Shown here: one piece after another, positions 3,612 to 59,076 of the stretch
Numbering within the stretch: position 1 is the first letter of the stretch
Layout of the letters: every line of letters starts with the position of its first letter
Assembly (NCBI GenBank): GCA_963695335.1
Contig: OY968764.1
Coordinates: 1,243,895 to 1,307,894 of the forward strand
Direction: 5' to 3'
Length of the DNA: 64,000 nt
DNA from: an uncultured bacterium
Lineage (GTDB): Bacteria; Babelota; Babeliae; Babelales; Vermiphilaceae
Notes under the pieces: model-generated
What the model was told of the DNA's origin: nothing
Database searches by the model: none
Seen by the model: only the letters and a program-made list of their open reading frames with translations
Program-made: the position numbers and the translations under genes

Positions 3612-3628
3612 AGGAAATCATCCTTTTA

Positions 3629-3663
3629 CCCCAATTTTCACTTTGTTCCAAATCGGGGACCCC
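3629..3663. repeat. short repeat, family C (CCCCARTTTTC..CCAAAYCGGGGWCCCC)
   Basis: ccccaattttcactttgttccaaatcggggacccc matches ccccagttttcgtttcactccaaaccggggtcccc at 58996-59030. Confidence 0.6.
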
Positions 3664-3734
3664 ATCAATGAAAGAGGGATAAGTTAATGTAATATTGTTA
3701 TAAACAAGCTTTTTACTTAAAGCTCAAACTTATT

Positions 3735-5046: not shown

Positions 5047-5087
5047 GTGCTCGTCCTGAGCTTGTCGAAGGATATCTTCGAGCGCTC
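5047..5087. repeat. palindromic element, family B half-copy
   Basis: gtgctcgtcctgagcttgtcgaaggatatcttcgagcgctc. A near-perfect inverted copy lies at 5445-5489. Confidence 0.85.
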
Positions 5088-5156: not shown

Positions 5157-5357
5157 CTAAATTTCCCATTCTTTAATCGTTTTCAATCTATCAGGATCTT
5201 TGTTTGCCTCCAGATAGGCTTTTTTTAATAGCGCACGCTCAAGGACTTGAGCAACAAAACAACTTAATTTTCTCTCATCAATCATCGAATGAAGCATGTT
5301 ATTCAGTTCTACGGAAATAGAAAAAGTAACTTTTATTTTTTTAGCACGTAATTTCAT
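5157..5357 (-). CDS. ribbon-helix-helix (CopG/Arc-like) small protein
   Basis: KIKVTFSISVELNNMLHSMIDERKLSCFVAQVLERAL fits a beta strand followed by two helices. No partner toxin ORF. Flanked by inverted half-elements. Confidence 0.45.
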   Translation of the reverse strand: MKLRAKKIKVTFSISVELNNMLHSMIDERKLSCFVAQVLERALLKKAYLEANKDPDRLKTIKEWEI

Positions 5358-5444: not shown

Positions 5445-5489
5445 CTTCGAGCGCTCAAAGATATCCTTCGACAAGCTCAGGACGAGCGC
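5445..5489. repeat. palindromic element, family B half-copy (inverted relative to 5047-5087)
   Basis: cttcgagcgctcaaagatatccttcgacaagctcaggacgagcgc. Confidence 0.85.
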
Positions 5490-8155: not shown

Positions 8156-8188
8156 TTAAGAAATTACTGTATAAAAAAAGGAAAATTT

Positions 8189-11453: not shown

Positions 11454-11506
11454 CCGCTCGCCCTGAGTGTTCTACAAAGTGAAACGTAGTAGAATGTATC
11501 GAAGGG
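11454..11506. repeat. palindromic element, family A
   Basis: ccgctcgccctgagtgttctacaaagtgaaacgtagtagaatgtatcgaaggg. Confidence 0.85.
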
Positions 11507-11547
11507 TGCAATATAAAATAGACTTAATACTATTAATTTTCCGCATA

Positions 11548-11592
11548 CCCTTCGATACATTTTTGCTTCGCAAAAACACTCAGGGCGAGCGG
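11548..11592. repeat. palindromic element, family A (opposite orientation)
   Basis: cccttcgatacatttttgcttcgcaaaaacactcagggcgagcgg. Confidence 0.85.
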
Positions 11593-13404: not shown

Positions 13405-13457
13405 CCTTTCGATACATTCTACTACGTTACACTTCGTAGAACACTCAAGGCGAGCGG
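13405..13457. repeat. palindromic element, family A
   Basis: cctttcgatacattctactacgttacacttcgtagaacactcaaggcgagcgg. Confidence 0.85.
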
Positions 13458-13472
13458 GTTAAATTCTTTCTT

Positions 13473-13518
13473 CCGTTCGCCCTGAGTGTTTTTTGTCTTC
13501 AAAAAATGTATCGAAGGG
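13473..13518. repeat. palindromic element, family A (opposite orientation)
   Basis: ccgttcgccctgagtgttttttgtcttcaaaaaatgtatcgaaggg. Confidence 0.85.
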
Positions 13519-13564
13519 TGTAAACTTATTAATTATCTTTAATACAACAACAAGGCGAAATATA

Positions 13565-29978: not shown

Positions 29979-30593
29979 TTATTCATCAACATTTTTGATC
30001 AATAACCCTTGTTGCGGGCAAACAAGATCATAATCGTAATAGATCTTTTTCCAGAACAAAGATAAATCTTTATATACCAATACCGATGAAGGCACATTTA
30101 AAACATAGGGAATATCAAACCATATAGGTAATTCTGCCAACAAATATTGTACAGCTATAGACACAGATGTATCATTAATACTTCCATTTTTATGTTCCAA
30201 CATCAATCGTGTCGCCCCTAAACAATCATTTCTGAATGATACATTCGTTTCAAAAACAGTCTTATAACGGTTATAGGATTCAAGATATCTTTGAGTTTGA
30301 GAAAGATGATTTAATAATATTATTTTTTCATGCGCATCTTTTTCAGACATCCCTACAGCTATGCAACTTTTTATAACCTTATTAAATAATTTTTTATCCT
30401 GCTCTTTTGTTTTTTTAACAGCTTTTTCCTCATCATACCCCAGTGCCATCAAATTATACTTGGAAGCCCCATCCATGATAAACAGATTAAACTCAGAAAA
30501 TGTTTCACAAGCCCAGCGTAATAAATGAGTAATGTTTGTAACGGAAAAATAACTATTAAAAGGACTAATGGCGATAAGTGCGTGATCAGTCAT
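29979..30593 (-). CDS. cyclodipeptide synthase (tRNA-dependent, AlbC family)
   Basis: DHALIAISPFNSYFSVTNITHLLRWA vs AlbC EHALIGISAGNSYFSQKNTVMLLQWA. QYLLAELPIWFD..VPSSVLVYK vs NYVLAEAPLFAD..VPSSVLCYH. Catalytic Ser, Tyr, Glu and Tyr equivalents are present. GAGG lies upstream of the ATG. Confidence 0.85.
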   Translation of the reverse strand: MTDHALIAISPFNSYFSVTNITHLLRWACETFSEFNLFIMDGASKYNLMALGYDEEKAVKKTKEQDKKLFNKVIKSCIAVGMSEKDAHEKIILLNHLSQTQRYLESYNRYKTVFETNVSFRNDCLGATRLMLEHKNGSINDTSVSIAVQYLLAELPIWFDIPYVLNVPSSVLVYKDLSLFWKKIYYDYDLVCPQQGLLIKNVDE

Positions 30594-32053: not shown

Positions 32054-32066
32054 TTTATTTAAGTAA

Positions 32067-33042
32067 CGTGAGTTCGATCTAAGAAAATTTTAAAAAAAAA
32101 TTCATTACGATATCCTTTTAAAAACAATCAAACTTAAAAAAGGGTATTGTAATGAATTTGACTACTATTTTCTACCATTGTGATGAATTTTGCAAATTTT
32201 TTGAAAAAGAGTTTCCAATCCGTGTTCTTTCTGATGGGAAAAATATTAGAAAAAGGAATGGATCTTTAAAGCTTAGTGAAACTATGACGATTGTCATTTA
32301 TTATCAGCAATCTGGCTATAAAACATTCAAGGATTATTACACAAAAAGTGATGAATTAAAATCAGCGTTCCCTGGTCTTACAAGCTATAATCGTTTTGTA
32401 GAATTACAACAAAAAATTACAATGCCTTTAGCTATTTTTACAAAATTATATGCGCTTGGAAAATGTGATGGCAATTCATACATTGACAGTTTTTCACTGT
32501 CTGTAAGTCATCAAAAAAGAATATCTTCTCATAAAACCTTTAAAGGATTAGCCGCTCGAGGAAAAACAAGTGTGGGTTGGTTTTACGGATTCAAAGTTCA
32601 TGTAATTATCAATGGTTGGGGAGAAATTATTGATTTTTGTATCACCTCAGGAAATGTTGTTGATAATAATACAAAAGTTATTGAAAAAATAACTGAAAAA
32701 ATTCATGGAAAAGTTTATGGAGATAAAGGCTATTTGCTTAATTCAGAACTGTTTCAAAAGCTTTACTCTAAAGGCATTCATATTGTTACAAAAATTCGAA
32801 ATAATATGAAAAATAAGCTTATGGATGTTAAAGATAAAATCATGTTAAAAAAACGTGGAATCATTGAGTCTGTTGGAGCAATTCTTAAGGAGGATCTTAA
32901 TATTGAACATTCACGATATCGTAGTCCAAGATCATTGATTATAAATGTATTTGCAGCTTTAGCTTCTTACGGATTTCGAAAAAAAAAGCCATCAATATAC
33001 AAAAAAAGCTTTTTTCTATTGACGGCTTAGATCGAACTCACG
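32067..33042 (+). mobile_element. IS982-family insertion sequence (976 bp)
   Basis: 17-bp inverted ends cgtgagttcgatctaag / cttagatcgaactcacg, with an 8-bp direct repeat ttaagtaa at 32059-32066 and 33043-33050. Contains a single transposase ORF. Confidence 0.85.
32152..33030 (+). CDS. IS982-family DDE transposase
   Basis: 292 aa with MNLTTIFYHCDEFCK.., GYKTFKDYY, DSFSLSV, GFKVHVII and DKGYL, typical of IS982-group transposases. Confidence 0.85.
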   Translation: MNLTTIFYHCDEFCKFFEKEFPIRVLSDGKNIRKRNGSLKLSETMTIVIYYQQSGYKTFKDYYTKSDELKSAFPGLTSYNRFVELQQKITMPLAIFTKLYALGKCDGNSYIDSFSLSVSHQKRISSHKTFKGLAARGKTSVGWFYGFKVHVIINGWGEIIDFCITSGNVVDNNTKVIEKITEKIHGKVYGDKGYLLNSELFQKLYSKGIHIVTKIRNNMKNKLMDVKDKIMLKKRGIIESVGAILKEDLNIEHSRYRSPRSLIINVFAALASYGFRKKKPSIYKKSFFLLTA

Positions 33043-33130
33043 TTAAGTAACAAGGCTTTACCACAATTTCCATAGCCTGTGAGTGAAAGACGAAAAATGA
33101 TACAAAATTAAGTACAATATATTTTTTCAT
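33043..33130 (-). pseudogene. orphaned 5' fragment (leader) of the IS-split gene 31379..32053
   Basis: Encodes MKKYIVLNFVSFFVFHSQAMEIVVKPCYL. Removing the IS and one target-site duplication (TSD) copy joins it in frame to ..NKMPRDILNY. Confidence 0.7.
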
Positions 33131-34525: not shown

Positions 34526-34600
34526 AATTTGATTTTTCTTTCTACAAATGCTATTGTATGCGCGTTATTTACATCATATTCATAAAAAAAGGAGCTCCTG

Positions 34601-35581
34601 ATGAAGAATGCGCAAATCTTTTCCTGTCTACTGTTTACCGCTGCCGCAACACACTGCATGGAATTTGATAACCACCCTACACCACAAAAACAAGAACCTA
34701 CTAATCCTTGGAACGCAATCAATTACCTCGAAATAGAACAATCTTTAAACGCTGATTACCGCAATTATTGTACCAATCGTCTCATAGAATACAAAAAAAC
34801 CACTTTTACACCGCAACATATGCAACACATCGAACAAATGGCAATCACATACACAGGCAATAATAATCTAAAGAAAATCCTGTATAACGTACGTGATGAA
34901 GAAGATAATCATTTCCCACATATTGCTGTTCAAAAATTTGATTTACCAACACTTACATGGCTTGTAACGCAAAAATTAATATATTATCCAAAAAATAAAC
35001 AAAATAAAGGATTTATGGAAGCATGCATTGATCACTTATCTCCCCATAACAATATAAATACTGAAAAAAAACAAATTGCATACGATATGCTCAATGTTAT
35101 CATAACAAACTATGGTAATCGCTTGGCGCTTTCCCTCAGAAAACCCATTGTAGAAAAATTGATTACACTCCAAATAGAGCATAAAAAACAACATAATAAT
35201 GATATCTTAGCTCACATTGTATTCACACCATTATTAGCTCAAGATGAAAATAATAATGTTGCAATTATTGATTTGCCAACACTGTATCAACAAGTTACCG
35301 ATGCCGATGGAAATACATTTTCTCATATTGTTGTCAATAAAAATGACGTACAAACACTTTATCAACTCATCAAAGATAACCGTGTATCGCCTACCCCTAA
35401 CAAGGCTAAAAAAACAGTAGTTGATCTTGCTTTAGCAAACTTCCAATGCTACATCAAAAGTCACTATATGAACGATTCATCTTCACATAAAGAGCAAGAA
35501 CTTGACGAAACATTGGATGCTCTAGCAAACTTTCCGCAAAAAGATAGTCTGCTGCTTGTTTATGCTCCTCAATTATGTTAA
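34601..35581 (+). CDS. member 1 of a four-gene tandem family (leader, degenerate ANK-like repeats); 3' end frameshifted
   Basis: Leader MKNAQIFSCLLFTAAATHCME, collinear with members 2-4. The family C-terminal module (CCLFMLLNY..PCCNQH) is encoded in another frame from 35547 to 35648. Confidence 0.65.
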   Translation: MKNAQIFSCLLFTAAATHCMEFDNHPTPQKQEPTNPWNAINYLEIEQSLNADYRNYCTNRLIEYKKTTFTPQHMQHIEQMAITYTGNNNLKKILYNVRDEEDNHFPHIAVQKFDLPTLTWLVTQKLIYYPKNKQNKGFMEACIDHLSPHNNINTEKKQIAYDMLNVIITNYGNRLALSLRKPIVEKLITLQIEHKKQHNNDILAHIVFTPLLAQDENNNVAIIDLPTLYQQVTDADGNTFSHIVVNKNDVQTLYQLIKDNRVSPTPNKAKKTVVDLALANFQCYIKSHYMNDSSSHKEQELDETLDALANFPQKDSLLLVYAPQLC

Positions 35582-35719
35582 AGCGCTGCAGACTAGCAAC
35601 AAATTATCCAGCTTTCCACCATGCTGTAATCAACATCCATTTATCTAGAAAAATACGTACACCATAAAAAAACAAAAAAAAATAATATCTTTTCATATTT
35701 CCAACAAAAGGACATTCTC

Positions 35720-36733
35720 ATGAAGCACATACAACTCTTTTCCTGTCTACTTTTTACTGCCATTGCAACCCATTGCATGGAAAACCAGCAAAACAATCAA
35801 CAAGCAGCACCAGAAAATCCATGGAAAGCTATTAATTGCCAAGCCATAGAAAAAAACCTTAATGATGACTATGATAGCTATCTTAAACAACGTTTAGAAG
35901 ACTATAAAACAAATGATTTCACACAACAAACAATGACCGACTTACAAACAATGGGTAATTTTATAACGGGAAAACAGAATATAGGTTTACCTTATAATCA
36001 TATTCGCGATAAGCAAGGCGATAGCTTTATCACCATCGCAGTTAAAAAACGAGACGTGCCAATTGTTAATTGGCACACAACAATCATCAGAAGAAATTAT
36101 ATTTCTCAAAAAGATTTTAACACATGCATTGCAACATGCATGCAATACCTCTCACCAAAAGAAACAGATAAAACCAAAAGAGATACTACATATACAATAC
36201 TTAAAAGGCTTACGCTAAAACACGGGCACTATACTATAGTACCTCTCTTACGTAATAAATCTGATAGAAAAAATCTTATCAAACAACTCATTACTCTACA
36301 AATTAAACATAAAAGACATAGCAGCAATTTTGTGATTGAAGATGAACTTATCACACAACATCTGACATCGGGAGAAAATGATCAATCACCTATTGCCATT
36401 GCCGATATATATCAAATGATTGCCAATAAAAAAGGAAATACATTATCGCATCTCGTTGTAACATCACAAGATCCAGATGAATTATGGAAGCTTATTACCA
36501 AAGAATATGTGTCTCCATTCCCAAATAAAGAGGAAAAAACCGTTCTCAATCTTGCACACGCATATTTCCAATCATTCAGCAAAGATGCAGCATCATTTGA
36601 TATATATCGAGAAGAATCTCAGCATGCTCGTTGCTGCTTATTCATGCTTCTCAATTATATCAAGTCAAAGCAAAACAATCAGGAACTTGCAACATTTACA
36701 CCATGCTGCGATAAACATACTGTAAAAAAATAA
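35720..36733 (+). CDS. member 2 of the tandem family
   Basis: Leader MKHIQLFSCLLFTAIATHCME. GNTLSHLVV..; C-terminus RCCLFMLLNYIKSKQ..PCCDKHTVKK. Confidence 0.7.
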   Translation: MKHIQLFSCLLFTAIATHCMENQQNNQQAAPENPWKAINCQAIEKNLNDDYDSYLKQRLEDYKTNDFTQQTMTDLQTMGNFITGKQNIGLPYNHIRDKQGDSFITIAVKKRDVPIVNWHTTIIRRNYISQKDFNTCIATCMQYLSPKETDKTKRDTTYTILKRLTLKHGHYTIVPLLRNKSDRKNLIKQLITLQIKHKRHSSNFVIEDELITQHLTSGENDQSPIAIADIYQMIANKKGNTLSHLVVTSQDPDELWKLITKEYVSPFPNKEEKTVLNLAHAYFQSFSKDAASFDIYREESQHARCCLFMLLNYIKSKQNNQELATFTPCCDKHTVKK

Positions 36734-36761
36734 TTTATATCTTCAACAAAAGGACATTCTC

Positions 36762-37766
36762 ATGAAGCGCACACAACTCTTTTCCTGTTTACTTTTCACC
36801 GCAATTACAACTCACTGCATGGAGGACAAGCCACAAAAACAAGAACTTGCAAATCCTTGGAAAGCAATTGATTGCCAAGTCATTGAAAAAAGCCTCACAG
36901 ACGACTATCATAACTATCTCAAAAACCGTTTGGAAGAATATAAAAAGGTTGATTTTACCCCTGAAAATATGATTCATCTGATATCTACAGGTATTTTTAT
37001 AACAGGAGATAAATACATAGGTCTTCCTTATAATGTTATCCGTGATGAAAACAATGATACTTTCCATAATATCGCAGTTAAACAACAAAATTTACCGGTC
37101 ATTAATTACTGTGTAAAAGGACATGGGTTTCATTGCATCACTCGTGATGACTTTGATCTATGTCTTGCAACATGCGTCAAACATCTTCACCCAGAGAAAA
37201 CTGATGCAACCGAAAAAACAACAGCCTATGAAATTATTAAAACACTCTGCACAAAACAAGGACCTAATGCGTCTATTTTTACTTTACGCGAAAAATCTTG
37301 CAGAGAAAATCTTATCAAGCAACTCATCTTGCTCCAAATCAAACATAAAAAATATAAGAGTGATTTTGTGATTGAAGATGAACTTATTGCGCAACACCTG
37401 ACATCAGGGGAAAATGATCAATCGCCTATTGTGCTAACAGATATGTATCAAACGGTTGCTAATAAAAAAGGAAATACATTATCTCATATAGTTGTAGAGT
37501 TACAAAACCCAGATGAGCTGCATCAACTTATTACCAAAAACTATATATCACCTGCTATAAATAAAACAAATGATACCGTACTCGATATTGCATTGTGGCA
37601 CTTCCAAGACTTTACTCATAACATATCTTCACTTGATGCGCATAAACCGCAAGCAGATCAATCACGATGCTGTTTATTTATGCTACTTAGCTATATTAAG
37701 TCAAAACAGAACGGCATATTAGACAAAAGTCAGCAATGTTGCGATAAACATCCTATAGCATTATAA
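36762..37766 (+). CDS. member 3 of the tandem family
   Basis: Leader MKRTQLFSCLLFTAITTHCME. Most similar to member 2. C-terminus RCCLFMLLSYIKSKQ..QCCDKHPIAL. Confidence 0.7.
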   Translation: MKRTQLFSCLLFTAITTHCMEDKPQKQELANPWKAIDCQVIEKSLTDDYHNYLKNRLEEYKKVDFTPENMIHLISTGIFITGDKYIGLPYNVIRDENNDTFHNIAVKQQNLPVINYCVKGHGFHCITRDDFDLCLATCVKHLHPEKTDATEKTTAYEIIKTLCTKQGPNASIFTLREKSCRENLIKQLILLQIKHKKYKSDFVIEDELIAQHLTSGENDQSPIVLTDMYQTVANKKGNTLSHIVVELQNPDELHQLITKNYISPAINKTNDTVLDIALWHFQDFTHNISSLDAHKPQADQSRCCLFMLLSYIKSKQNGILDKSQQCCDKHPIAL

Positions 37767-38410
37767 AACCAACAGCTTCCCATAAAAGAAACACAACAAA
37801 AAGGTACTTCTGATGAAAAATACACAACTCTTTTTCTATTTACTTTTCATAACAATCACAACTCATTGCATGGAACCCAATCCTTGGGCAGCCATTGATT
37901 GCCACAAAATCGAACAAACCTTATTTACTGATTACCGTAATTATTGCGCTGGACAACTTGAAGAATACAAGCAAACTACTTTTACGCCGCAACATATGAA
38001 ACATATAGAAGATATGGCAATCACGTATACGGGATACAATCATTATAAATCAACTCTCTATGATGTGCGTGATAAAGAAGATAATTGTTTTCCACATATT
38101 GCAATTCAAAAATTTGATTTACCAACACTTACATGGCTTGTAAGACAAAGAATATATTATCCAAAAAACAAACAGGGCAAAGGGTTTATCGAAGTATGCA
38201 TTGATCATTTATCCCCCCACAACAATATTGACGCTGAAAAGAAACAAATCGCATATGCTATGCTCAACACTATTATAACAAATTACGGCAAGAGGTTAGG
38301 CATTTCGCTCAGAAAACCAATTGTAGAAAATCTTATTGCGCTACAAATCGAACACAGAAAACAACACAACAACAATGTTTTAGCTGACATTGTATTGACA
38401 CCATTACTAG

Positions 38411-39258
38411 GTTCTGTTGAGTTTTTGAAAAGATAAGTTTTGAAGTATGATAACACCGAAAAAGCAAAAACCAAATCACTAAAACGGTGCTATCATGAAA
38501 AAAGAGTATATCAGCGAAATGGCCTGGAGCAAAATTTTTAATTTTTTAAAACAGCAAAAAAACATTTATATAAAAGAAGAAAAGGACTGTAAAAAGTTTA
38601 TAGAAGGGACATTTTGGATGGCAAGAACAGGAGCACAATGGAGAGAGTTGCCGGAAAAATATGGAAATTGGAATAGTGTGTTCAGCAGATTTAATGCTTG
38701 GTCAAAAAAACATATTTGGGAAAAATTACTCAGTTTTTGTGCAGAGGATCCCGATATGGAATATGTAATGATTGATGCCACGATAGTCCGCGCACATGCC
38801 TGTTCTGCTGGATATGATCAATTTAAAAATGAAGGACTGGGAAGAAGTAAAGGTGGTTTTACAAGTAAGATACATGCAACAGTAGATGCTTTAGGCAATC
38901 CTTTAAGATTTGTTATTACTCCTGGTCAGCGTAATGATATTACTCAGGCTGATATTTTATTAAAAGATATTTCTGAATCATATGTAATAGCGGATAAAGG
39001 ATATGATTCCACTGAATTACGTTCGAAATTAATAGAAAAAAATTGTGTTCCCGTTATTCCTCCAAGATCCAATCGTAAAGAACAATATCAATATGATGAA
39101 CATCTATATAAAGAGAGACATGCGATTGAATGCTTGTTTTCAAAGATAAAACACTTTAGAAGAGTGTTTGCTCGTTTTGATAAATCGGCACGAAATTTTT
39201 TATCTTTTCTTTCTTTTGTGGGAACTTGCATATGGTTACGATGAAAACTCAACAGAAC
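38411..39258 (+). mobile_element. IS5-family insertion sequence (848 bp)
   Basis: Inverted ends gttctgttgagtttt / aaaactcaacagaac with CTAG direct repeats at 38407-38410 and 39259-39262. Alternatively GG..CC ends with a TA duplication. Confidence 0.85.
38495..39244 (+). CDS. IS5-family DDE transposase
   Basis: WMARTGAQWRELPEKYGNWNSVFSRFNAWSK, IDATIVRAH, ADKGYDS and YKERHAIECLFSKIKHFRRVFARFDK are hallmarks of IS5/IS427-type transposases. Confidence 0.9.
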   Translation: MKKEYISEMAWSKIFNFLKQQKNIYIKEEKDCKKFIEGTFWMARTGAQWRELPEKYGNWNSVFSRFNAWSKKHIWEKLLSFCAEDPDMEYVMIDATIVRAHACSAGYDQFKNEGLGRSKGGFTSKIHATVDALGNPLRFVITPGQRNDITQADILLKDISESYVIADKGYDSTELRSKLIEKNCVPVIPPRSNRKEQYQYDEHLYKERHAIECLFSKIKHFRRVFARFDKSARNFLSFLSFVGTCIWLR

Positions 39259-39675
39259 CTAGCCGAAGGTCCAAACAATGGTCGTGCAACTATTGATTTA
39301 CCAACATTATACCGACAAGTAACTGATAGCAACGGAAACACGCTCTCTCATATCATTGCTGCCTACGCAAATGATGCAGATGAACTGTATCAACTCATAA
39401 AAAATAACTCTGTATCTCCTGCACCAAATACAGCTGGTAAAACTATTGTTGACCTTGCCTTGGCAAAGTTTCGATCATATACGAATGAGCCATTTGAATA
39501 CTTGGATCTGTTACCAATAGACAAACCATTTAACAGCAGTCGGTGCTGTTTATTTATGTTGCTCAAGTACATTAAATCACAACAAGATGGTAAGTTAACT
39601 GATAATTACACATGTTGTGATAAACATGTTATAACAATCTAACCGCAAAAACTGTTATGTAACATTATAAAAAAA

Positions 39676-39711
39676 GAAATTGTGAATAATATATTCGCAA
39701 TTTCTTTTTTT
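39676..39711 (+). terminator. rho-independent terminator after the tandem family
   Basis: Stem gaaattgtg/cgcaatttc, 11-nt loop, then ttttttt. Confidence 0.65.
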
Positions 39712-39769
39712 ACTTTTTTATCCTCTTTTTTAATAGATCTTCTCAAGTATCATTAAAAAGGGGGCGCCT

Positions 39770-40222
39770 ATGAAATATATCAGAGTATATACATCTTTCA
39801 TGCTATTTTTACTATCGTCATCTACAGGAATGCAAAATATACACTTTAAAGAGCAACTGAGTGAAATAGAAAAATTAATTGTCTTGCATAAAATGAAACA
39901 TGCTAGTCATAAAATAGATTTTAATGCTGCACACATCTTTGATGCACCAATAATAACAAAAATTGAAAAAGATCGAACTGATGATTTTGCTACTTTGATT
40001 ATGGAAACTATCAAAGAGCAAGAAAAAGAACTGGGGTACGTACCAGAACAAATATCTGAAAAAATAGATGGGGTATGGCACCTTACCATACCCACCAATT
40101 ATATCGGCAAGTACACACGTTATTATCATACAAAAGATTTTGCAGGGGAGTATATTGAACTGCATTCAACGTTTATCTATCAACCAGCCGTACTAGAAGT
40201 GCTTAACAATTATTCCTCATAA
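39770..40222 (+). CDS. leader-bearing protein of unknown function
   Basis: Leader FMLFLLSSSTGMQ. No recognised domain. Confidence 0.4.
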   Translation: MKYIRVYTSFMLFLLSSSTGMQNIHFKEQLSEIEKLIVLHKMKHASHKIDFNAAHIFDAPIITKIEKDRTDDFATLIMETIKEQEKELGYVPEQISEKIDGVWHLTIPTNYIGKYTRYYHTKDFAGEYIELHSTFIYQPAVLEVLNNYSS

Positions 40223-40296
40223 AAAACTCATGTTATCTTTTAAAAGACAATGAAGAATGCTATGATGTGCAGAAAAATTATAAAAAAAGGATCGGT

Positions 40297-40758
40297 ATGT
40301 GTAAAAAGATTATAAATTGGACTATGCACAATTCTCCTACATTGCAACACCTTGGCCTCACCATAATCCGCATCGGGTTTGGTATCACATTAACTATATT
40401 TGGTTACAACAAACTCTTTTCAGGCAGCGCTAACCTAACACAAATTGGTAGCGCAATGTCATTTTTTGGTATCACCCATGGATATGTAATCTGGGGATAT
40501 CTTGCAGCACTCACAGAACTGTGCGGTGGTTTTGCATATGCAATTGGCCTTTGGACACGCATTGCCTCTTTACCTCTTATCTGGCTTTTGATTGTCGCAA
40601 TCAGATTTCATCTGCAAAGAGGTGATGCATTTACTGTATGGGCGTTTCCAGTTACTTGTTTGTGCATTGTTATTGGATTTTTGATTGCAGGAAGTGGTGT
40701 TTACTCTGCTGATTATGTTCTTTACGCGCAAGCGCATAATAAGAATCACGATTTTTAA
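40297..40758 (+). CDS. DoxX-family membrane protein
   Basis: LGLTIIRIGFGITLTIFGYNKLF..LTELCGGFAYAIGLWTRIASLPL. ATG 40297 has AGGA upstream, whereas the ORF track starts at GTG 40267. Confidence 0.8.
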   Translation: MCKKIINWTMHNSPTLQHLGLTIIRIGFGITLTIFGYNKLFSGSANLTQIGSAMSFFGITHGYVIWGYLAALTELCGGFAYAIGLWTRIASLPLIWLLIVAIRFHLQRGDAFTVWAFPVTCLCIVIGFLIAGSGVYSADYVLYAQAHNKNHDF

Positions 40759-40842
40759 CTATCGTTTTTTTAATCCTCCAGCATGAACTGTTGAAAAATT
40801 AATCAAAAAAACAGCAAACACATGCAATCAAAAGGTTTATTC

Positions 40843-41796
40843 ATGCATAAATATAATCTTCTCATTACCCTCACATCCCTTGTTACCGCATCCATACTAG
40901 CAATGGAACAAGAACAAAAAAACATACAACTTCAAAAAACAGAAAAATCTCGTTGTAAAATTTCTGAACTTCTAGAAAATCCTCGTACCCCAAAACGCCT
41001 TATAATGGAAATTAACAATTTACTAGAGAACAAAAACTTTACTCTTGATGCTCATTCTGTTGATTCAAAAACGCATCCATTCGAGATAAAAGTTGCTTTT
41101 TATAATGATAACATGGAACATGCATTAACGTATAAAATGCCACATGATTATCCATTTTATGCTCCTATTCTTTCATCTCTTGAAACGAGCAATACCATGC
41201 TTACAACACAAGACTTGATCGCCATTAAAAAAAAATTTAATGATGATCTTAAACAAATCTGGAATCCCGCACGACGAATGACTGAAATAGTTGCGATGAC
41301 TCATAAACACATAAGTTCCTATGAAGATCAAAAAATAGCATCTCAACGAGTTGCTCAAGGTTATGAAAGAACGTTACCTCAGATAAAAGAAAAATATCAA
41401 ACGACCAATGTCTATGTAAATAGCCAATATCCAGAATTTCAAGAAAAATTACATGGGCTTTGGATTAAAGAAATGCCAAGCGGATATTTTGTATTTCATG
41501 TCGAATATAATTACATAAATATAGCTTTTGAACCTAAGTACATAGGTGCAGAACCTCTATCATACCATGGATACTGTGCTGTGGGGTATCACGAGACACA
41601 TAATAACCAATTTCATATACACATAAGTGATACCAATGATTCAGGAAAAATAAATGCCTTTAAAATCTTTGTATACTCTGATCATATTTCAATCATATTT
41701 AACTCTCTACAACACGATTCAATCTTAAACGCCATCATATCTCAACTCAAAATGGATGATGTTATTGGAGAACGCATGGATTTAATAAAAATATAA
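40843..41796 (+). CDS. leader + UBC-fold (E2/UEV-like) domain protein lacking the catalytic Cys
   Basis: KRLIMEINNLLEN.., PFEIKVAFYNDNMEHALTYKMPHDYPFYAPIL and KQIWNPARRMTEIV parallel E2 KRIQKEL.., F..L.I.FP.DYPF.PP and WSPALT. No HPN-Cys segment. Start at the second ATG, which is shared with the 41880 leader. Confidence 0.5.
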   Translation: MHKYNLLITLTSLVTASILAMEQEQKNIQLQKTEKSRCKISELLENPRTPKRLIMEINNLLENKNFTLDAHSVDSKTHPFEIKVAFYNDNMEHALTYKMPHDYPFYAPILSSLETSNTMLTTQDLIAIKKKFNDDLKQIWNPARRMTEIVAMTHKHISSYEDQKIASQRVAQGYERTLPQIKEKYQTTNVYVNSQYPEFQEKLHGLWIKEMPSGYFVFHVEYNYINIAFEPKYIGAEPLSYHGYCAVGYHETHNNQFHIHISDTNDSGKINAFKIFVYSDHISIIFNSLQHDSILNAIISQLKMDDVIGERMDLIKI

Positions 41797-41879
41797 TAGT
41801 TCATCTTTGTCTCATTGCCTTTTTAGATAAAAAATATAACCTTATACTTAAAAAAATAATCATAATAAAAGGTTTATTC

Positions 41880-43034
41880 ATGCATACATATCATCTTCTC
41901 ATTATCCTCACATCAGTTGTTACTACATCTACTATGACAATGGAAGACTACCAACTTGATTTAGCTCATATAAAAAGGCTACAACGCAAATATATTGGAA
42001 AACATGGTTGGACAGTAAAAACAGACAAGAACGGAAAATACTCTGTATGCATAGATTGTAGTGATGGTCAAGGTGAGTTCTATGCAAAAACACAAGTTAT
42101 TCGCGAATTCAAAGAATATCAAAACACTCAATTCTTACTACAATTAGATACTACAAACAAATCCATAATCAGCGATGATAATGATGTGCACATTATTGAC
42201 ATGCAAACTGGCGAGGCTCAAGAAACTCTATCTGGTCATACAGATCTTGTCCATTGTTGCGCACATACCGATTACCGCCACATACTCGTTACAGGCTCCA
42301 ATGATACAACAATTAAATTGTGGAATATAAAAAATAATCAATGCATGCGAACATTGCATAGCCATAAACACTATGTAACAAATGTTGCTTCAAAAGGAAA
42401 TACTATCACTTCAACAGACAGAGAGCCTTGCTTAAAATTATGGGATATGTCATCTGCCAAAACATTTCATACAAAACTCTTTATTGATAAAAGTAATGAG
42501 CATCATATGCCTACGAGCCTCATGATGCATAACAACCTTATATATGTAGGACTCACAAAGGGGATAATCACAATAATTGATCCACGATCAACAATATCAG
42601 TCTATGAAGGAACTACCCACGCAGGCCCTGTTGAATGCCTTACTCCATGCACAAATAATAATGATGTATTCTATTCTGGATCATCAGATCAAACGGTCAA
42701 ACAATGGGATCTTCGTCGTCCTAATGCTCCCACCAAAATATTACATAAAAAAAATAATCCTGATAACCAAAAATATAGTATTCAAAATGTCTATGAAGAT
42801 CATAATGGTAAAAAAATATTTTCATCGGACAAAAATAGAATCTATATATGGGATGTTTCCACAGAAGAACCAAAAATAGTAACCACAAAAAAATTTGATC
42901 ATGCTATTTACCCCAACTGCATGCGCATGAATAATGATGAAACTGAGCTGTATATTGGCACAAAAGAAGGTATAAAAACCCTCACTCCCGCACTCAGCTT
43001 TGAACAACTTGCTGCATTAGCGGAACAAAAATAA
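41880..43034 (+). CDS. leader + WD40-repeat protein
   Basis: GHTDLVHCCAH..LVTGSNDTTIKLWNI, HSHKHYVTNV, LKLWDM and YSGSSDQTVKQWDLR. Confidence 0.85.
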   Translation: MHTYHLLIILTSVVTTSTMTMEDYQLDLAHIKRLQRKYIGKHGWTVKTDKNGKYSVCIDCSDGQGEFYAKTQVIREFKEYQNTQFLLQLDTTNKSIISDDNDVHIIDMQTGEAQETLSGHTDLVHCCAHTDYRHILVTGSNDTTIKLWNIKNNQCMRTLHSHKHYVTNVASKGNTITSTDREPCLKLWDMSSAKTFHTKLFIDKSNEHHMPTSLMMHNNLIYVGLTKGIITIIDPRSTISVYEGTTHAGPVECLTPCTNNNDVFYSGSSDQTVKQWDLRRPNAPTKILHKKNNPDNQKYSIQNVYEDHNGKKIFSSDKNRIYIWDVSTEEPKIVTTKKFDHAIYPNCMRMNNDETELYIGTKEGIKTLTPALSFEQLAALAEQK

Positions 43035-45551: not shown

Positions 45552-45624
45552 AAAAAATACTCCTTATTTTTCCAACTAACTATATTTTATCATCTATTTG
45601 GCTAAAATTACAATAAAAAATTGA

Positions 45625-45845
45625 GCCAAATAGGCCATATTCATAACCTATTTGGCTCAAAATTAGCGATCCCCCTAAAAACAGATTAGTAAGACTAGAC
45701 ACATCTTGCATAGATAAAAGCAAATCTTTAAAATTCTTTTGATTAACACGACTCAATCGCTATTAAATAAAAAATTCTGCAATTTGGAAGCAATAATTCC
45801 AAATTGCAGAAAATATAGGTTTGAAGCGATTCAATCACACTATTC
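45625..45845. repeat. structured ~190-220 bp repeat, copy A (two conserved hairpins)
   Basis: Aligns with 55090-55270. Hairpin 1 is gagccaaatagg..cctatttggctc and hairpin 2 is ttctgcaatttgga..tccaaattgcagaa. Copy A has ~50 extra nt in the spacer. Confidence 0.8.
45766..45811 (-). terminator. rho-independent terminator of 45840..46502 (hairpin 2 of the repeat)
   Basis: 14-bp stem followed by a T-run on the minus strand. Confidence 0.7.
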
Positions 45846-46502
45846 TTTGTTCTTATTGTATTCTTCAAAAAGAGCACGCTGCTTGATATAACAATCTTTT
45901 TTATGCCGCAAAAGCCCCGCTATTTTCTTACATTGCTCAGCGGTGATCTTGTCATGAGCCCACAACAATTTTCCTTCTTCTTCCTTGCTCTGCAATTTTT
46001 GTAAACCTGCGTTTACAGTCATTACAAAATGATGCTCCTGATTAGCATCAGAGAAAAGTTCAACTCTTTTTTTCTGAGCATCATACAGGTCAAGATACTT
46101 ACAACAACGTGGATTGCTACATGGGATTTTTTTAATATATGCAAAAGAACACTCATCACTACCAATTTCTGCAATATCATAATAAAGTTTTTCAGCCCTA
46201 AAAGCTTTTGGGTCACGTACATACTTATACGTTTTATGCACACCTTTACATGCACCACCAATAATATAACATCCAGCAACAGTTGCAACTTGCCCTAGAG
46301 CATAACCGAGAGGCAAAATGAACATTGCTGCAGCAACAATTTCACCAGCCTCATCAAAATTTCTTTTTTGTATCATAGGACTTGTTACATTGACCCGATG
46401 TACAGATTTTGGCATCCGCTTGGTAACCAACTGCATTGCAGATACTTCTGATGCAATGATCATTGATACGCACAATCCAAAAAAAATAGTCTTACCATCC
46501 AT
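45840..46502 (-). CDS. leader-bearing Cys-motif protein, paralog family member
   Basis: MDGKTIFFGLCVSMIIASEVSAMQLVTKR parallels 47370..48332. CSNPRCCKYLD motif. Confidence 0.6.
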   Translation of the reverse strand: MDGKTIFFGLCVSMIIASEVSAMQLVTKRMPKSVHRVNVTSPMIQKRNFDEAGEIVAAAMFILPLGYALGQVATVAGCYIIGGACKGVHKTYKYVRDPKAFRAEKLYYDIAEIGSDECSFAYIKKIPCSNPRCCKYLDLYDAQKKRVELFSDANQEHHFVMTVNAGLQKLQSKEEEGKLLWAHDKITAEQCKKIAGLLRHKKDCYIKQRALFEEYNKNKE

Positions 46503-50860: not shown

Positions 50861-52135
50861 TTACTTTTGTGTCTCAATAAAAGGATTTACTCCACCATGC
50901 TTCCTTATTATTGCCTTATTTATTAAAGACAAAATTTCTGCATCTGATGTAATTGAAGGTTGCGGAAAACGTGTTGCTGCAGATTGTATTGCTGCTGCAT
51001 ACCCCTCTGGATAAATAATCTTTATAGCATTATTACGTGGCGTTACACCAAATTTATTGACAAACTCTGGGTCTGCTCCTGCATCAAGAAGTTCTTTAAT
51101 CATTAATTTATTTTTTGTATTAATTGCAGCCGAAAGAGCTGTAGTTCCTTTCTTATTCTGTTGATCTATTGCGATATAAGGATTATTTAAAAGACATTTG
51201 ACTGCTTCCATGTGGCCCTCATCCACAGCAAATAATAATGCTGTATCTCCATACATAGGAGTATCTTTATTAACATCTGCTCCATACTCAAGAAGTATAG
51301 TAATCATAGGGCAGTTATTGTCTTGTGCTGCATGCATAAGAGCTGTTAGTCCACCATTGCTTGGCTGATCTATCTTAATTCGAGGGTTACTTAAAAGACA
51401 TTTAACTGCTTCCATATGTCCTTGAGCAACAGCAAGTGCTAATACTGGGATTCCAGACTCTAAAACAATTTTATTAATATCTGCTCCATGCTCAAGAAGT
51501 ATAGTAATCATAGGACAATTGTTGTAAAACACTGCAAGCGAAAGAGCTGTGCCCCCATCAGTACCTACTTGATCTATCTTAATTTGCGGATTACTTAAAA
51601 GACATTTAACCGCTTCCATATGTCCTTCAGCAACAGCAAACCGCAATGCTGTCGTTCCTTTCGTATTACCTTTATTGATATCTGCCCCATGCTCAAGCAA
51701 TATATTAATAACAGGACAATGATTTTCTTGTGCCGCAAACATAAGGGCTGTACTCCCAAAACTATCTTGTTGGTCTACCTTAATGTGAGGATTATCTAAA
51801 AGACATTGAACTGCTTCTATATGCCCCTTTTGAGCAGCAAATATTAATGCTGTCCTCCCATCAGAATCAATTACGTTAACATCAATTCCATCATCAAGAA
51901 GTTTTGTAATTGTAGAGCAATCATTTTCCTTTGCTGCGTTCAAGAAGGCATCACTTTGTCCTCCTTGAATATATTTTTTATATGCTAAATAACCACCCCC
52001 AATAGCCGCTCCGATAAGTGCAATCAATCCTATTTTTTTTGCGGTACTTGATTCTTCTTCCATGCCATAATTATGATATGGTGTAATTATCAGCAAAAAT
52101 GCAGTGATCATGCTCAATTTTTTTGTACAATCCAT
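50861..52135 (-). CDS. ankyrin-repeat protein (about 9 repeats) with leader/TM
   Basis: Repeated DGRTALIFAAQKGHIEAVQCLL, GSTALMFAAQENHCPVINILLEHGADIN and similar units. Leader ..PYHNYGME followed by a second hydrophobic segment. Confidence 0.9.
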   Translation of the reverse strand: MDCTKKLSMITAFLLIITPYHNYGMEEESSTAKKIGLIALIGAAIGGGYLAYKKYIQGGQSDAFLNAAKENDCSTITKLLDDGIDVNVIDSDGRTALIFAAQKGHIEAVQCLLDNPHIKVDQQDSFGSTALMFAAQENHCPVINILLEHGADINKGNTKGTTALRFAVAEGHMEAVKCLLSNPQIKIDQVGTDGGTALSLAVFYNNCPMITILLEHGADINKIVLESGIPVLALAVAQGHMEAVKCLLSNPRIKIDQPSNGGLTALMHAAQDNNCPMITILLEYGADVNKDTPMYGDTALLFAVDEGHMEAVKCLLNNPYIAIDQQNKKGTTALSAAINTKNKLMIKELLDAGADPEFVNKFGVTPRNNAIKIIYPEGYAAAIQSAATRFPQPSITSDAEILSLINKAIIRKHGGVNPFIETQK

Positions 52136-52252
52136 ATATCCCCCTCCCTCTTTTTTTAATTACAACTTCCCTATAGAAATCTTAAACAATAGCATTTCAA
52201 TTAGTCAACACTAAATCATAAAACCTATCAGATAATAGCTTTTTATAATAAT

Positions 52253-52296
52253 AATTCAGCCAAGTAGACCAACTTCTTAGGCTACTTGGCTGAATT
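52253..52296. repeat. 15-bp-stem hairpin related to hairpin 1 of the 190-bp repeat
   Basis: aattcagccaagtag..ctacttggctgaatt shares the AGCCAAGTAG core with 55094-55103. Confidence 0.5.
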
Positions 52297-53620: not shown

Positions 53621-53941
53621 ATGAACAATTCAATACATCATTGCTGCAATTTTATGCAGCATTTTTTAGATGATACAAGAATGCCTCTCATGTATTCACC
53701 TATCTATAAAGAATATGGAATCATTCTTTTAGACCAAGGGAAAGACGAAAAAGATCTATTAGAAAGAGAAATAATTTCCTACTGCCCATGGTGTAGTACA
53801 CATTTACAAACTGATCTACGCGATAAATGGTATGAAATTCTTGAAAAAGAATATCAAATCGATCCGGATGACGAAAAACAAAAAAAATCTATTCCTGCTG
53901 AGTTTTATACTGAAGAATGGTGGAAAAAAAGGGGCTTATAG
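53621..53941 (+). CDS. small conserved Cys-containing protein (possibly a DUF6980-type family)
   Basis: HHCCNFMQHFL..YSPIYKEYGI..ISYCPWCSTHLQTDLRDKWYE resembles a small family I recall. The family name is unverified. Confidence 0.45.
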   Translation: MNNSIHHCCNFMQHFLDDTRMPLMYSPIYKEYGIILLDQGKDEKDLLEREIISYCPWCSTHLQTDLRDKWYEILEKEYQIDPDDEKQKKSIPAEFYTEEWWKKRGL

Positions 53942-53970
53942 CAAATTCCTAAAAATATATACAGTCTCCA

Positions 53971-54078
53971 GCGCTCGTCCTGATGCTTCGTCAAGCTCAG
54001 CAGTAAACACCTGCCTTGAGAACTTGCCATGCCTGCCATAGCCTTGGCGACGGCAGGTTGAAGGATATCTTCGAGCGC
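53971..54078. repeat. family B half-element carrying a ~63-nt internal insertion
   Basis: gcgctcgtcctga[..insert with ctgcc..ggcag hairpin..]gttgaaggatatcttcgagcgc. Confidence 0.7.
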
Positions 54079-54091
54079 ATTAAAAAAAAGG

Positions 54092-54991
54092 ATGATTTCC
54101 ATGTATAGAAAACATTCTCCATTCATTTCTATTATTTGCTCACTTTTAATTGTGGGTGCTTTTTTTTTGATGCAACATTTTTGGTATGCACAAAAAAATA
54201 TTCAATATATTGATTCATATGTTCAAGTAAGCAATATTTTTGCAGAAGCGGATTCAAATACTCTGATTCTTTTCGATGTTGATGAAACACTTATTGAACC
54301 TAGGAGTGTAATATTTAGGCCAAAAACTATTGAAAACAAAGCTAATCTTCCATGGATTATCGATTTAGTATCACGAGTGTATGGCAAAAGTGATAAAACA
54401 GAAGAATATTATGGAAGTATTTGGAAAGTACAAGAGACGCCATTGCTTATAGAGCCTCATATTGTGTCAGTTATTCAATCATTACAAGATCGTGGTGTAA
54501 AGGTTGTGGCTTTAACAGCTTTAAAAACTGGTTCAAGCTACATTATTTCTTCATTGCCAGAATGGCGATATAACAAATTAAAAGAATTAGGAATTGATTT
54601 TGCAAAAATTGGCTTACCAGATATTATCTTTGATGAATTACCAGAAAAAGATGGTAATTATCCTATGTTATATCGTGGTATATTATGTACCAATGGTGTA
54701 TCTAAAGGTGAACTTGCCAGAGCTTTTCTAGATCGAATACAATGGAGACCTGATAAGGTTATTTTTTTTGATGATAATAAAGCTCGGGTTAAAGAAGTTG
54801 AAGAAGCTATGCAAAAACACTCAATTCCTTTCCAAGGGTTTGTGTATCTTGGTGCAGAATATATGCCAGGAGAGCTTAATAAAGAGGTTGCTGAATTTCA
54901 ATTGAATTATCTTGTAGAACATGAAGATTGGATAAGTGATGAGCAAGCTTTATCGCTTCTGAATAATCGTGCGATAGCTTATGAATATTAA
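54092..54991 (+). CDS. HAD-like hydrolase (DUF2608-like), N-terminal TM anchor
   Basis: LILFDVDETLIEP (DxDx motif I), VVALTAL (motif II) and FFDDNKARV (motif IV). Confidence 0.6.
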   Translation: MISMYRKHSPFISIICSLLIVGAFFLMQHFWYAQKNIQYIDSYVQVSNIFAEADSNTLILFDVDETLIEPRSVIFRPKTIENKANLPWIIDLVSRVYGKSDKTEEYYGSIWKVQETPLLIEPHIVSVIQSLQDRGVKVVALTALKTGSSYIISSLPEWRYNKLKELGIDFAKIGLPDIIFDELPEKDGNYPMLYRGILCTNGVSKGELARAFLDRIQWRPDKVIFFDDNKARVKEVEEAMQKHSIPFQGFVYLGAEYMPGELNKEVAEFQLNYLVEHEDWISDEQALSLLNNRAIAYEY

Positions 54992-55022
54992 AATAGTTTT
55001 TGGTTTGAATGTATATTGTAAT

Positions 55023-55061
55023 GCGCTCGAAGATACCCTTCGACAGGCTCAGGGTGAGCGC
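55023..55061. repeat. palindromic element, family B half-copy (inverted relative to 53971-54078)
   Basis: gcgctcgaagatacccttcgacaggctcagggtgagcgc. Confidence 0.85.
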
Positions 55062-55089
55062 CTGAAATATTGTTGTATAAATTAATAAA

Positions 55090-55270
55090 AACTAAGCCAA
55101 GTAGGTCATATTTACAACCTATTTGGCTTAAAACGAGCGATTCATTCTAAAACAGATTCATACTTCAATGACACGACTCAATTGCTATTACAACAAAAAT
55201 TCTGCAATTTGAAACTATTACTTCCAAATTGCAGAAAATATAAATTTAAGTCGATTCAATCGCACTATTC
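55090..55270. repeat. structured ~190 bp repeat, copy B
   Basis: Aligns with 45625-45845. Both hairpins are conserved, with a compensatory outer pair in hairpin 1. Confidence 0.8.
55193..55236 (-). terminator. rho-independent terminator of 55287..55847 (hairpin 2 of the repeat)
   Basis: Stem ttctgcaatttg/caaattgcagaa followed by a T-run on the minus strand. Confidence 0.65.
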
Positions 55271-55286
55271 TCTATTCTTGCCAACC

Positions 55287-55869: not shown

Positions 55870-55934
55870 GCGCTCATCCTGAACTTGTTGAAGGATTAAG
55901 CGCTTTAATTCTTCGACAGGCTCAGAATGAGCGC
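55870..55934. repeat. palindromic element, family B (full palindrome)
   Basis: Reverse complement nearly identical to 1606-1670. Confidence 0.85.
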
Positions 55935-56954: not shown

Positions 56955-56964
56955 TTAAAATTGT

Positions 56965-57050
56965 GTTCGTATCCTTCGACAGGCTCAGGACGAACGGAAC
57001 TTAATATCTTTTAAACCCGTTCGCATTGAGCTTGTCGAAATGCGCGAACG
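56965..57050. repeat. palindromic element, family B' dimer
   Basis: gttcgtatccttcgacaggctcaggacgaacgg..cccgttcgcattgagcttgtcgaaatgcgcgaacg. Confidence 0.85.
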
Positions 57051-58938: not shown

Positions 58939-59076
58939 GCGCTCGCCCTGAACTTGTTGAAGGGTATCTTTCGAGCGCTCGAAGATATCCTTTTTCCCCA
59001 GTTTTCGTTTCACTCCAAACCGGGGTCCCCGTCTGAAGGAACTGAAGATGGGGTTAAACAGGCTCAGGATGAGCGC
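58939..59076. repeat. composite: family B palindrome interrupted by a family C element
   Basis: gcgctcgccctgaacttgttgaagggtatctttcgagcgctcgaagatatcc + [ccccagttttcg..cggggtcccc..] + acaggctcaggatgagcgc. Confidence 0.8.

Follow-up and report, generated by a model that had tools for sequence, protein, structure and literature searches.

The 64-kb window of contig OY968764.1 analysed here (~35% G+C) carries about 22 copies of a small hairpin unit at 13 intergenic or 5′-of-gene loci, together with one solo remnant of a second element, the C module. It encodes the housekeeping genes ffh, hflX, uvrD, trpS, and ppa as well as ankyrin, TPR, and WD40 proteins and arrays of paralogues, while no tRNA gene lies in its 64 kb. 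The Ffh and TrpRS proteins are 92–96% identical to counterparts in uncultured Dependentiae/Babeliales (TM6) genomes, and the closest relative, contig CAZWTF010000001 (L155), shares ~84% nucleotide identity with the window. A preliminary description had listed about 20 copies or half-copies, sorted into families A, B, B′, and C. Every position on that list holds the sequence assigned to it, but a degenerate A copy at ~8284–8320 and a nested B-like hairpin at 53983–54002 (−) had been omitted.

The core GCTCGYCCTGAG, with at most one mismatch, matches 13 times in the window versus 0.05 expected from shuffles, and a repeat finder independently recovers the families (D8, D11, I1–I8). A covariance model derived from the B/B′ units and applied to the window with filters off identifies 12 units at E < 1e-8, with A units scoring weaker and nothing significant between 14 and 53 kb. 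All units are confined to 1–14 kb and 54–59 kb, where they stand in both orientations beside genes, in divergent, convergent, and co-directional gaps. The 40 kb at 14000–53000 are free of hairpin units, and the flanking 20 kb carry 22. Moreover, the stretch at ~48.9–55.3 kb is missing from the syntenic contig of the closest relative, in which ffh and trpS are only ~20 kb apart.

One strand-specific hairpin of ~35–55 nt is the basic unit underlying all of A, B, and B′. In the B unit GCGCTCG-TCCT-GA-G-CTTGT-C-GA-AGGA-TATCTT-CGAGCGC (GCGCTCGTCCTGAGCTTGTCGAAGGATATCTTCGAGCGC is an example of a sense-strand hairpin oligonucleotide), the outer stem is followed inward by the inner stem, a T-A pair, a 2 × 2 internal loop GA/GA, a G-C pair, and the pentaloop CYTGT. 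The outer stem reads GCGCTCG/CGAGCGC in B and CCGTTCG/CGAACGG in B′, while the inner stem comprises three to four covarying pairs. The internal loop is constant, 5′-(Y)CTGAG/TCGAAG(R)-3′, and its GA/GA nucleotides can form tandem sheared G·A pairs. The apex is formed by the pentaloop CYTGT in B and B′, by a variable extra hairpin in A, or by the two-hairpin C module in a long form. Family A, in which the pentaloop is swapped for TG-[hairpin]-TGTAT, keeps CTGAG and TCGAAGG, and its apical stems all differ (e.g. TTTTAC/GTAAAA, TTCTAC/GTAGAA, TTTTTG/CAAAAA, CCCC/GGGG). The relatedness of the families noted earlier is supported; the B′ units, however, carry GTTCGT and not GCTCG. The loci 1606–1670, 55870–55934, and 58939–59076, described as full palindromes, are inverted dimers in which each monomer already forms a hairpin.

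The hairpin structure is established by covariation. In an alignment of 23 Dependentiae units from the window and its relatives, 97.1% of the cells are paired, compared with 85.8% in shuffles and 30–52% for slid partners. Pairing in the inner helix reaches 100%, and four of its five pairs show compensatory changes; the loop-adjacent pair 14–20, intact throughout, is GC in 12 units and AU in the other 11. Further, across 483 unique copies of the B type, drawn from many phyla as well as viral contigs, the three core-flanking pairs are 82–93% Watson–Crick and show CG/GC/TA/AT swaps, versus 0–75% for slid controls. The signal is strand-specific, the covariance model giving 50+ bits to the sense strand and 11–14 bits to the antisense strand. 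Folding of the dimers with DNA nearest-neighbour parameters yields z = −6.4 for 1606–1670 and z = −9.5 for 10042–10129.

Single B-type units occupy 5047–5087 (+; 52.7 bits), 5445–5489 (−; 56.7 bits; 97% complementary to the 5047 unit), and 55023–55061 (−; 53.3 bits). In the B-type inverted dimer at 1606–1670, a plus-strand unit (1606–1640; 55.0 bits) and a minus-strand unit (1637–1670; 52.5 bits) have the central GCGC in common. The second such dimer, at 55870–55934, had been noted to be nearly identical to the first, and the two differ at three positions, two of which make up a compensatory C-G to T-A change. The 63-nt insert reported for the B-type unit at 53971–54078 (+) is likewise confirmed; it sits in the apex and holds the nested B-like hairpin mentioned above. 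The B′ units form dimers that face the opposite way to the 65-nt B dimers at 1606 and 55870: one, joined tail to tail, consists of 10042–10076 (−; outer stem CGTTCGT/ACGAACG, inner stem GGT/ACC; 39.5 bits) and 10088–10129 (+; 49.9 bits), the other of 56963–56997 (−; 50.2 bits) and 57018–57050 (+; inner stem ATT/AAT; 36 bits).

The long form is found at 58939–59076, where a B-type unit on the plus strand (58939–58978; 54.6 bits) is joined to a minus-strand B unit (58972–59076) whose apex is filled by the C module. The 35-nt family C element of the preliminary description is present (C core, 58996–59030) but is only part of this ~66-nt module (~58989–59055), which is composed of two hairpins in the order CCCC...GGGG, one base (A/T), CCCC...GGGG. 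The 138-nt composite had been read as a local nested insertion, a view we abandon. A 142-nt B-C-B composite, 86.6% identical, occupies a non-orthologous site in genome OY969561 (L156), and scanning metagenomes for the C core yielded 36 loci of 30–40% G+C, ~25 of them with the identical B-C-B arrangement. The C module is also found in the apex of A-type units (L474, L477, L486) and of a B′ unit (L476), or alone. The contigs that carry it in an apex are many and Dependentiae-like (~35% G+C). Because the arrangement recurs in ~25 metagenome contigs and L156, and the module in A and B′ apices as well, the B-C-B composite is an established, propagated long form rather than a single local insertion. 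A decayed solo C module lies at 3617–3680 (+; core 3629–3663) between ffh and the gene that follows it, and a similar solo copy is located elsewhere in the related locus L002. Other modules are found in the apex, too: an A unit of L002 contains a B hairpin, and a Sphingobium copy follows the same design. The C core may resemble the Tn3 terminal repeat (GGGG...ACGAAAAC).

Several units lie within the 5′ ends of genes. At 6710–11423, a hairpin unit is read through near the 5′ end of each of three tandem paralogues (TPR repeats, weak GT9-like C-terminal region), ahead of the hydrophobic part of the signal peptide; all three read-throughs are stop-free, and their in-frame status rests on predicted start codons. 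The open reading frame (ORF) 6710–8155 contains the A-type unit 6753–6806 (+; CTGAGTG, a variable apical hairpin, and TGTATCGAAGG) in frame at its 5′ end, ORF 8189–10030 holds the A-type unit 8222–8266 (−) within its 5′ end, and ORF 10017–11423 reads in frame through the B′ dimer at 10042–10129. In addition, the 3′ half of the degenerate A-type unit at 8284–8320 (+) is ATGTATCGAAGGG, which at 8306 supplies the ATG and the codons MYRRV of a signal-peptide start, where the orthologue in the related locus L001 begins MKKKA. Further A-type units are located at 11454–11509 (+), 11548–11592 (−; apical hairpin TTTTTGC-GAA-GCAAAAA), 13405–13458 (−; repeat-finder families I3 and I4), and 13471–13520 (+), the last upstream of the likely uvrD start (ATG 13565). 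Between the inverted units 5047 and 5445 lies a 66-aa ORF (5157–5357, −; MKLRAKKIKVTFSISVELNNMLHSMIDERKLS...) that resembles a ribbon-helix-helix/CopG-type protein, has no Pfam match, and is absent from L001, L002, and L003. Spurious-looking ORFs are called across the units of the window, with peptides such as VLSLSK, FDRL, and PSTSSGR, and the same may hold in other phyla. The repeats thereby explain a class of spurious “hypothetical proteins” called by annotation pipelines.

The units are polymorphic between relatives, and near-identical copies occur at non-orthologous sites. L155 lacks the B′ dimer at 56965 (both units) and the whole 58939 composite. At the 55870 site, L155 has a single 39-nt unit exactly where the window has its 65-nt dimer, with identical flanks (TTTATAA on the left, AAAGA on the right), and three further relatives have no element there. 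The elements at 1606 and 5047/5445 are missing from L001. The presence/absence differences at orthologous sites that the preliminary description proposed to look for do exist. Conversely, L002 carries a dimer 97% identical to 1606–1670, differing only by the central GC, at a different site: it sits in the gap after ffh, which in the window contains the C remnant, and the neighbouring genes are only ~82% identical. Metagenome contigs, from DNA runs in which the organism is present at very low depth, match elements alone and break at element edges, for example at 8221/8266 and at 11454/11522. Between Dependentiae loci, unit density varies from seven in 6.3 kb (L002) to zero at most of them. Among 11 complete copies, none has a direct repeat common to its two flanks or shows a target-site duplication.

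The elements are not confined to the window but recur in relatives, metagenomes, and other phyla; instead of a lineage-specific family, we find a core hairpin that spans, in both B and A architectures, most bacterial phyla, plasmids, and viral contigs. In a scan of 596 Gb, the 17-mer probe CCTGAGCTTGTCGAAGG matches at least 120 loci outside the window lineage, and the phyla among the matches listed include Bacteroidota, Cyanobacteria, Chloroflexota, Proteobacteria, Actinomycetota, Nitrospirota, Planctomycetota, Patescibacteria, and others. By arithmetic, chance alone would give ~70 matches of the 17-mer in this collection. Two or more copies within 8 kb, however, are present at 70 of the 120 listed foreign loci, versus 0.015 extra copies expected, and the flanks of the foreign copies are structured, with ccgttcgcCCTGAGCTTGTCGAAGGgc ... 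gcTTCGACAGGCTCAGcccgaacgg as a frequent form. For the A-type signature, ~540 chance matches are expected in the whole collection; among the matches listed, however, 118 of the 142 A-type copies possess apical stems of at least 4 bp, and these stems differ widely in sequence. The motif occurs in at least 120 viral contigs and in 60 plasmid records, at up to 22 places per Sphingobium megaplasmid, none of them annotated, and plasmids and viral contigs are plausible vehicles. Across phyla, neighbouring units form 88 inverted and 25 direct pairs, and ~10% of the copies in other phyla start YGTCAY or CCTCAY. Neither core nor architecture differs between Dependentiae, Sphingobium, Dehalococcoidia, Flavobacteriales, and viral contigs, and the persistence of one 13–17-nt core and architecture across phyla implies a conserved recognition partner.

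The apical loops bear on the nature of the functional nucleic acid. Among 39 triloops, 28 are GNA and 24 C(GNA)G, and GNRA accounts for only one of 15 tetraloops. Exceptionally stable DNA mini-hairpins are formed by C(GNA)G loops, d(GCGAAGC) being an example; functional RNAs favour GNRA and UNCG loops, and tandem sheared G·A pairs are well known from RNA. On the sense strand, T·G exceeds C·A (39 versus 9 at stem position 3), and this excess is, like the strand specificity, compatible with either nucleic acid. On account of the C(GNA)G-type loops and of the occurrence of units in both orientations to genes, including divergent promoter gaps, we favour single-stranded DNA as the form on which selection would act.

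The preliminary description placed the elements among repetitive extragenic palindromic (REP), Rickettsia palindromic element (RPE), or MITE (miniature inverted-repeat transposable element) types. They do behave as mobile repeats, but the GTAG tag of REPs, the target-site duplication of MITEs, and, in the open frames searched, similarity to RPE domain models are all lacking. With the REP/REPIN sequences associated with RAYT transposases, the units have in common that they are short imperfect hairpins, mostly extragenic and often in inverted pairs, without target-site duplication, with varying copy number among relatives and with compensatory changes. In contrast to these, the window units have no unpaired GTAG tag, their 5′ ends (GCGCTCG/CCGYTCG) being paired to the 3′ end; moreover, the core is cross-phylum, the apex is modular, and no RAYT flanked by units was found in the loci searched. 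REPs are usually lineage-specific, and to our knowledge a cognate enzyme is known only for GTAG REPs.

The nearest described class is the superfamily of CGTC-tagged REPs, which is found in several phyla, mostly as inverted dimers and without a dedicated transposase (Di Nocera et al, 2013; PMC3733652). These repeats carry an unpaired CGTC, TGTC, or CCTC tag, an 8–9-bp stem starting with AT, a 4–5-nt loop, and the 3-nt tail CCA, with occasional intragenic copies near repair genes (PMC3733652). The likeness extends to the multi-phylum, transposase-less distribution and the inverted dimers, to the 5-nt pentaloop of the B type, to a window unit located just upstream of the repair gene uvrD, and to the YGTCAY or CCTCAY starts of ~10% of the copies in other phyla. 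The window copies, however, have no unpaired tag, no AT-initial stem, and no CCA tail, the stem of the units contains an invariant tandem mismatch, and A-type apices measure 11–48 nt among the copies collected; this distinction was drawn from the text description, as the published consensus sequences are given in figures only (PMC3733652).

Resemblance to other small elements is partial. Like RPEs, the units are small palindromes of a host-dependent bacterium and some lie in gene 5′ ends (6753, 8222, 10042–10129), but their open frames match no RPE domain model, and they are mostly intergenic and are distributed far beyond one genus. MITEs such as the Correia elements are likewise non-autonomous, ~40–140 nt long, intergenic with occasional ORFs, and form composites with inverted ends; the units differ in being single hairpins without target-site duplication and without a parent insertion sequence of matching ends. 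The MITEs QMITE1/2 of Coxiella include QMITE2, which is common to Coxiella and alphaproteobacteria and combines a conserved stem with a variable tip (PMC5896051). The units share the cross-lineage occurrence and the conserved stem with variable tip, a comparison made by description and not by sequence. Palindrome-based PATE elements derived from IS200/IS605 are also hairpin-based, lack target-site duplication, and presumably move through single-stranded DNA intermediates, but the units have no nearby TnpA/TnpB, no asymmetric ends, and no conserved target tetranucleotide adjoining the copies. Integron attC core sites R′/R″ (GTTRRRY) were not seen in the units by reading, and a Pfam scan of 47 window ORFs revealed no integrase. 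We also considered, and dropped, a hammerhead or another small ribozyme, as on inspection the conserved nucleotides are at odds with the CUGANGA...GAAA core.

Searches of known families gave no match. Rfam returned nothing for the whole window at gathering score. For 1–14 kb, a stretch that includes copies of B, B′, A, and C, relaxing the threshold to E ≤ 10 gave only spurious microRNA-hairpin matches. Pfam and NCBIfam, including the RPE domain models, gave no match at E up to 10 for the open frames of seven read-through ORFs. Full-text searches with the core in both orientations and with the encoded peptides found no published description, and the literature on Dependentiae and repeats contained nothing relevant.

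The search for a partner enzyme covered the loci around the units. The E. coli RayT protein, used with phmmer and as a small HMM against 24,434 ORFs, detected four RAYT-like ORFs; neither the window nor ~0.9 Mb of Dependentiae loci contains any, and the motif lies 50–150 nt downstream of three of the four. The RAYT-like ORFs in L446, L043, and L050 were rejected as cognate enzyme on finding that each is flanked by its own, different REPs, and the suspected link to TnpA-REP is not borne out in the loci searched. The genes in Gallionella L446 (900–1750) and the anammox-related L043 (4300–5250) stand with GTAG-type REPs of their own, and CTGAG/TCGAAG units follow 50–100 nt downstream of them, so that repeats of different families come together in the same gaps. 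In an all-against-all BLAST of ORFs from the 120 foreign loci, no family was present in more than eight loci, and the ORFs between inverted units in other phyla are unrelated to one another. The only transposase of the window is a 292-aa DDE protein (DDE_Tnp_1_3) encoded by a complete-looking IS982-like insertion sequence at 32059–33050 (~992 bp; 25-bp terminal inverted repeats TTAAGTAACGTGAGTTCGATCTAAG).

Taken together, we consider the units to be probably non-autonomous, selfish REP/REPIN-like mobile hairpin repeats. They occur singly or as inverted pairs, and extra hairpin modules (A, C, nested B) are repeatedly found in the apex. On this reading, they would spread within and between genomes without target-site duplication, landing in AT-rich intergenic DNA and gene 5′ ends. 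The C(GNA)G-type loops suggest that the functional form may be single-stranded DNA. The conserved internal loop could be what an enzyme acting in trans, with its gene at another place, recognises; an HUH-type single-strand DNA transposase or nuclease would be the most likely candidate, or else some other enzyme. A bolder version, which we put forward tentatively as a possibility, is that the units constitute a third, unnamed pan-bacterial superfamily of single-stranded DNA hairpins beside the GTAG and CGTC REPs, distinguished by the tandem-G·A loop and the modular apex, with a very widespread enzyme mobilising them in trans and with phages and plasmids as their carriers from phylum to phylum.

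Several observations weigh against mobile REP-like repeats. Strict conservation of 13–17 nt across phyla is unusual for REPs and could reflect a host function. No recurrent ORF stands beside or between units in ~240 loci and no mobilising enzyme was found there, the RAYT-like genes have REPs of their own, as described above, and the terminal repeats of the IS982-like element are unrelated to the hairpin units. Both the tandem G·A motif and the T·G excess are as compatible with RNA as with DNA. At ~84% identity, the intergenic DNA is too diverged for any insertion event to be traced with single-base resolution. Finally, the minimum-free-energy fold of single units with DNA nearest-neighbour parameters is an alternative pair of small hairpins; this alternative is contradicted by the covariation, because column 14 varies between G and A without change in its alternative partner.

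Among the rival explanations, a structured cis-acting RNA, i.e. a terminator, an mRNA-stabilising 3′ hairpin, or a tandem-GA protein-binding motif recognised by a universal RNA-binding factor and spread by duplication, appears unlikely. It would account for the strong covariation around an invariant internal loop, for a hairpin that scores 50+ bits on one strand and 11–14 on the other, for the preference of T·G over C·A in the stems, for a tandem sheared G·A motif familiar from RNA, and for the location of every copy in intergenic or 5′ regions. Yet the units lie in both orientations to genes, including the divergent promoter gaps 5047/5445 and 56963/57018, and mostly form inverted pairs, so that one partner is always antisense. 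Moreover, the loops are C(GNA)G triloops instead of GNRA/UNCG tetraloops, no Rfam family matches the first 14 kb at E up to 10, and copies are gained and lost between close relatives, some of them inside ORF 5′ ends. Double-stranded binding sites for a nucleoid protein, gyrase, or an IHF-like factor, kept for chromosome organisation, are distinctly improbable. The conserved 13–17-nt core and the intergenic location would suit such sites, and E. coli REPs do bind gyrase (PMC3733652). The covarying stems and the freely variable apical hairpin, however, show that pairing within the strand is conserved rather than duplex sequence, and copy numbers from none to many among close relatives, with 40 kb devoid of units, argue against a general chromosomal role.

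Pairs with outward 5′ ends also raise the question whether the units are attC-like sites of recombination or integration at the borders of mobile gene cassettes. Three (+)...(−) pairs each enclose one gene that the closest relatives lack, namely the 66-aa ORF 5157–5357, ORF 6710–8155, and the DUF2608 gene at 54092–54991, and the apex repeatedly contains extra inserted modules. ORF 6710–8155, however, is a tandem paralogue of its neighbours, for which simple duplication suffices, and the boundaries of insertions and deletions differ from unit ends, as in L154, which lacks 53941–55282. Nearly every gap in this part holds an element, so that flanking is expected by chance, and with neither an integrase nor visible R′/R″ sites, and with mutually unrelated unit-flanked ORFs in other phyla, we regard cassette boundaries as very improbable. 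Chance similarity or assembly artefacts are refuted: although the 17-mer scan of 596 Gb alone would yield ~70 matches, the 13 core matches in the window compare with 0.05 in shuffles, 70 of the 120 listed foreign loci have at least two copies in 8 kb against 0.015 extra expected, the flanks are structured, and the same elements occur in independent assemblies and metagenomes.

Small hairpin repeats cause rearrangements, create new protein starts and N-termini, and mark strain differences. In Dependentiae, the repeats are ready markers of recent genome change, and elements have been taken into the 5′ ends of genes for secreted proteins.

The window displays further repeats and genes of note. 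A 116-nt repeat with an inverted repeat inside is present at 45739–45854 and 55164–55279 (83% identical), and a ~49-nt hairpin (AGCCAAGTAGG...CCTATTTGGCT) has three copies at 45612–45660, 52246–52294, and 55083–55131; both adjoin the B unit at 55023. At 34573–42000, an array of at least six paralogous ~1-kb genes with signal-peptide-like starts and 60–85% DNA identity has no Pfam match. ORF 50861–52135 (−) contains four tandem copies of a ~204-nt repeat (51062–51859). A single ORF at 1752–3056 (−) joins TrmD, a tRNA m1G methyltransferase, to a second, S-adenosylmethionine-dependent RNA methyltransferase domain (Methyltrn_RNA_4). Finally, a cyclodipeptide synthase (CDPS; E = 3.7e-42), unexpected for a small host-dependent genome, is encoded at 29979–30593 (−).

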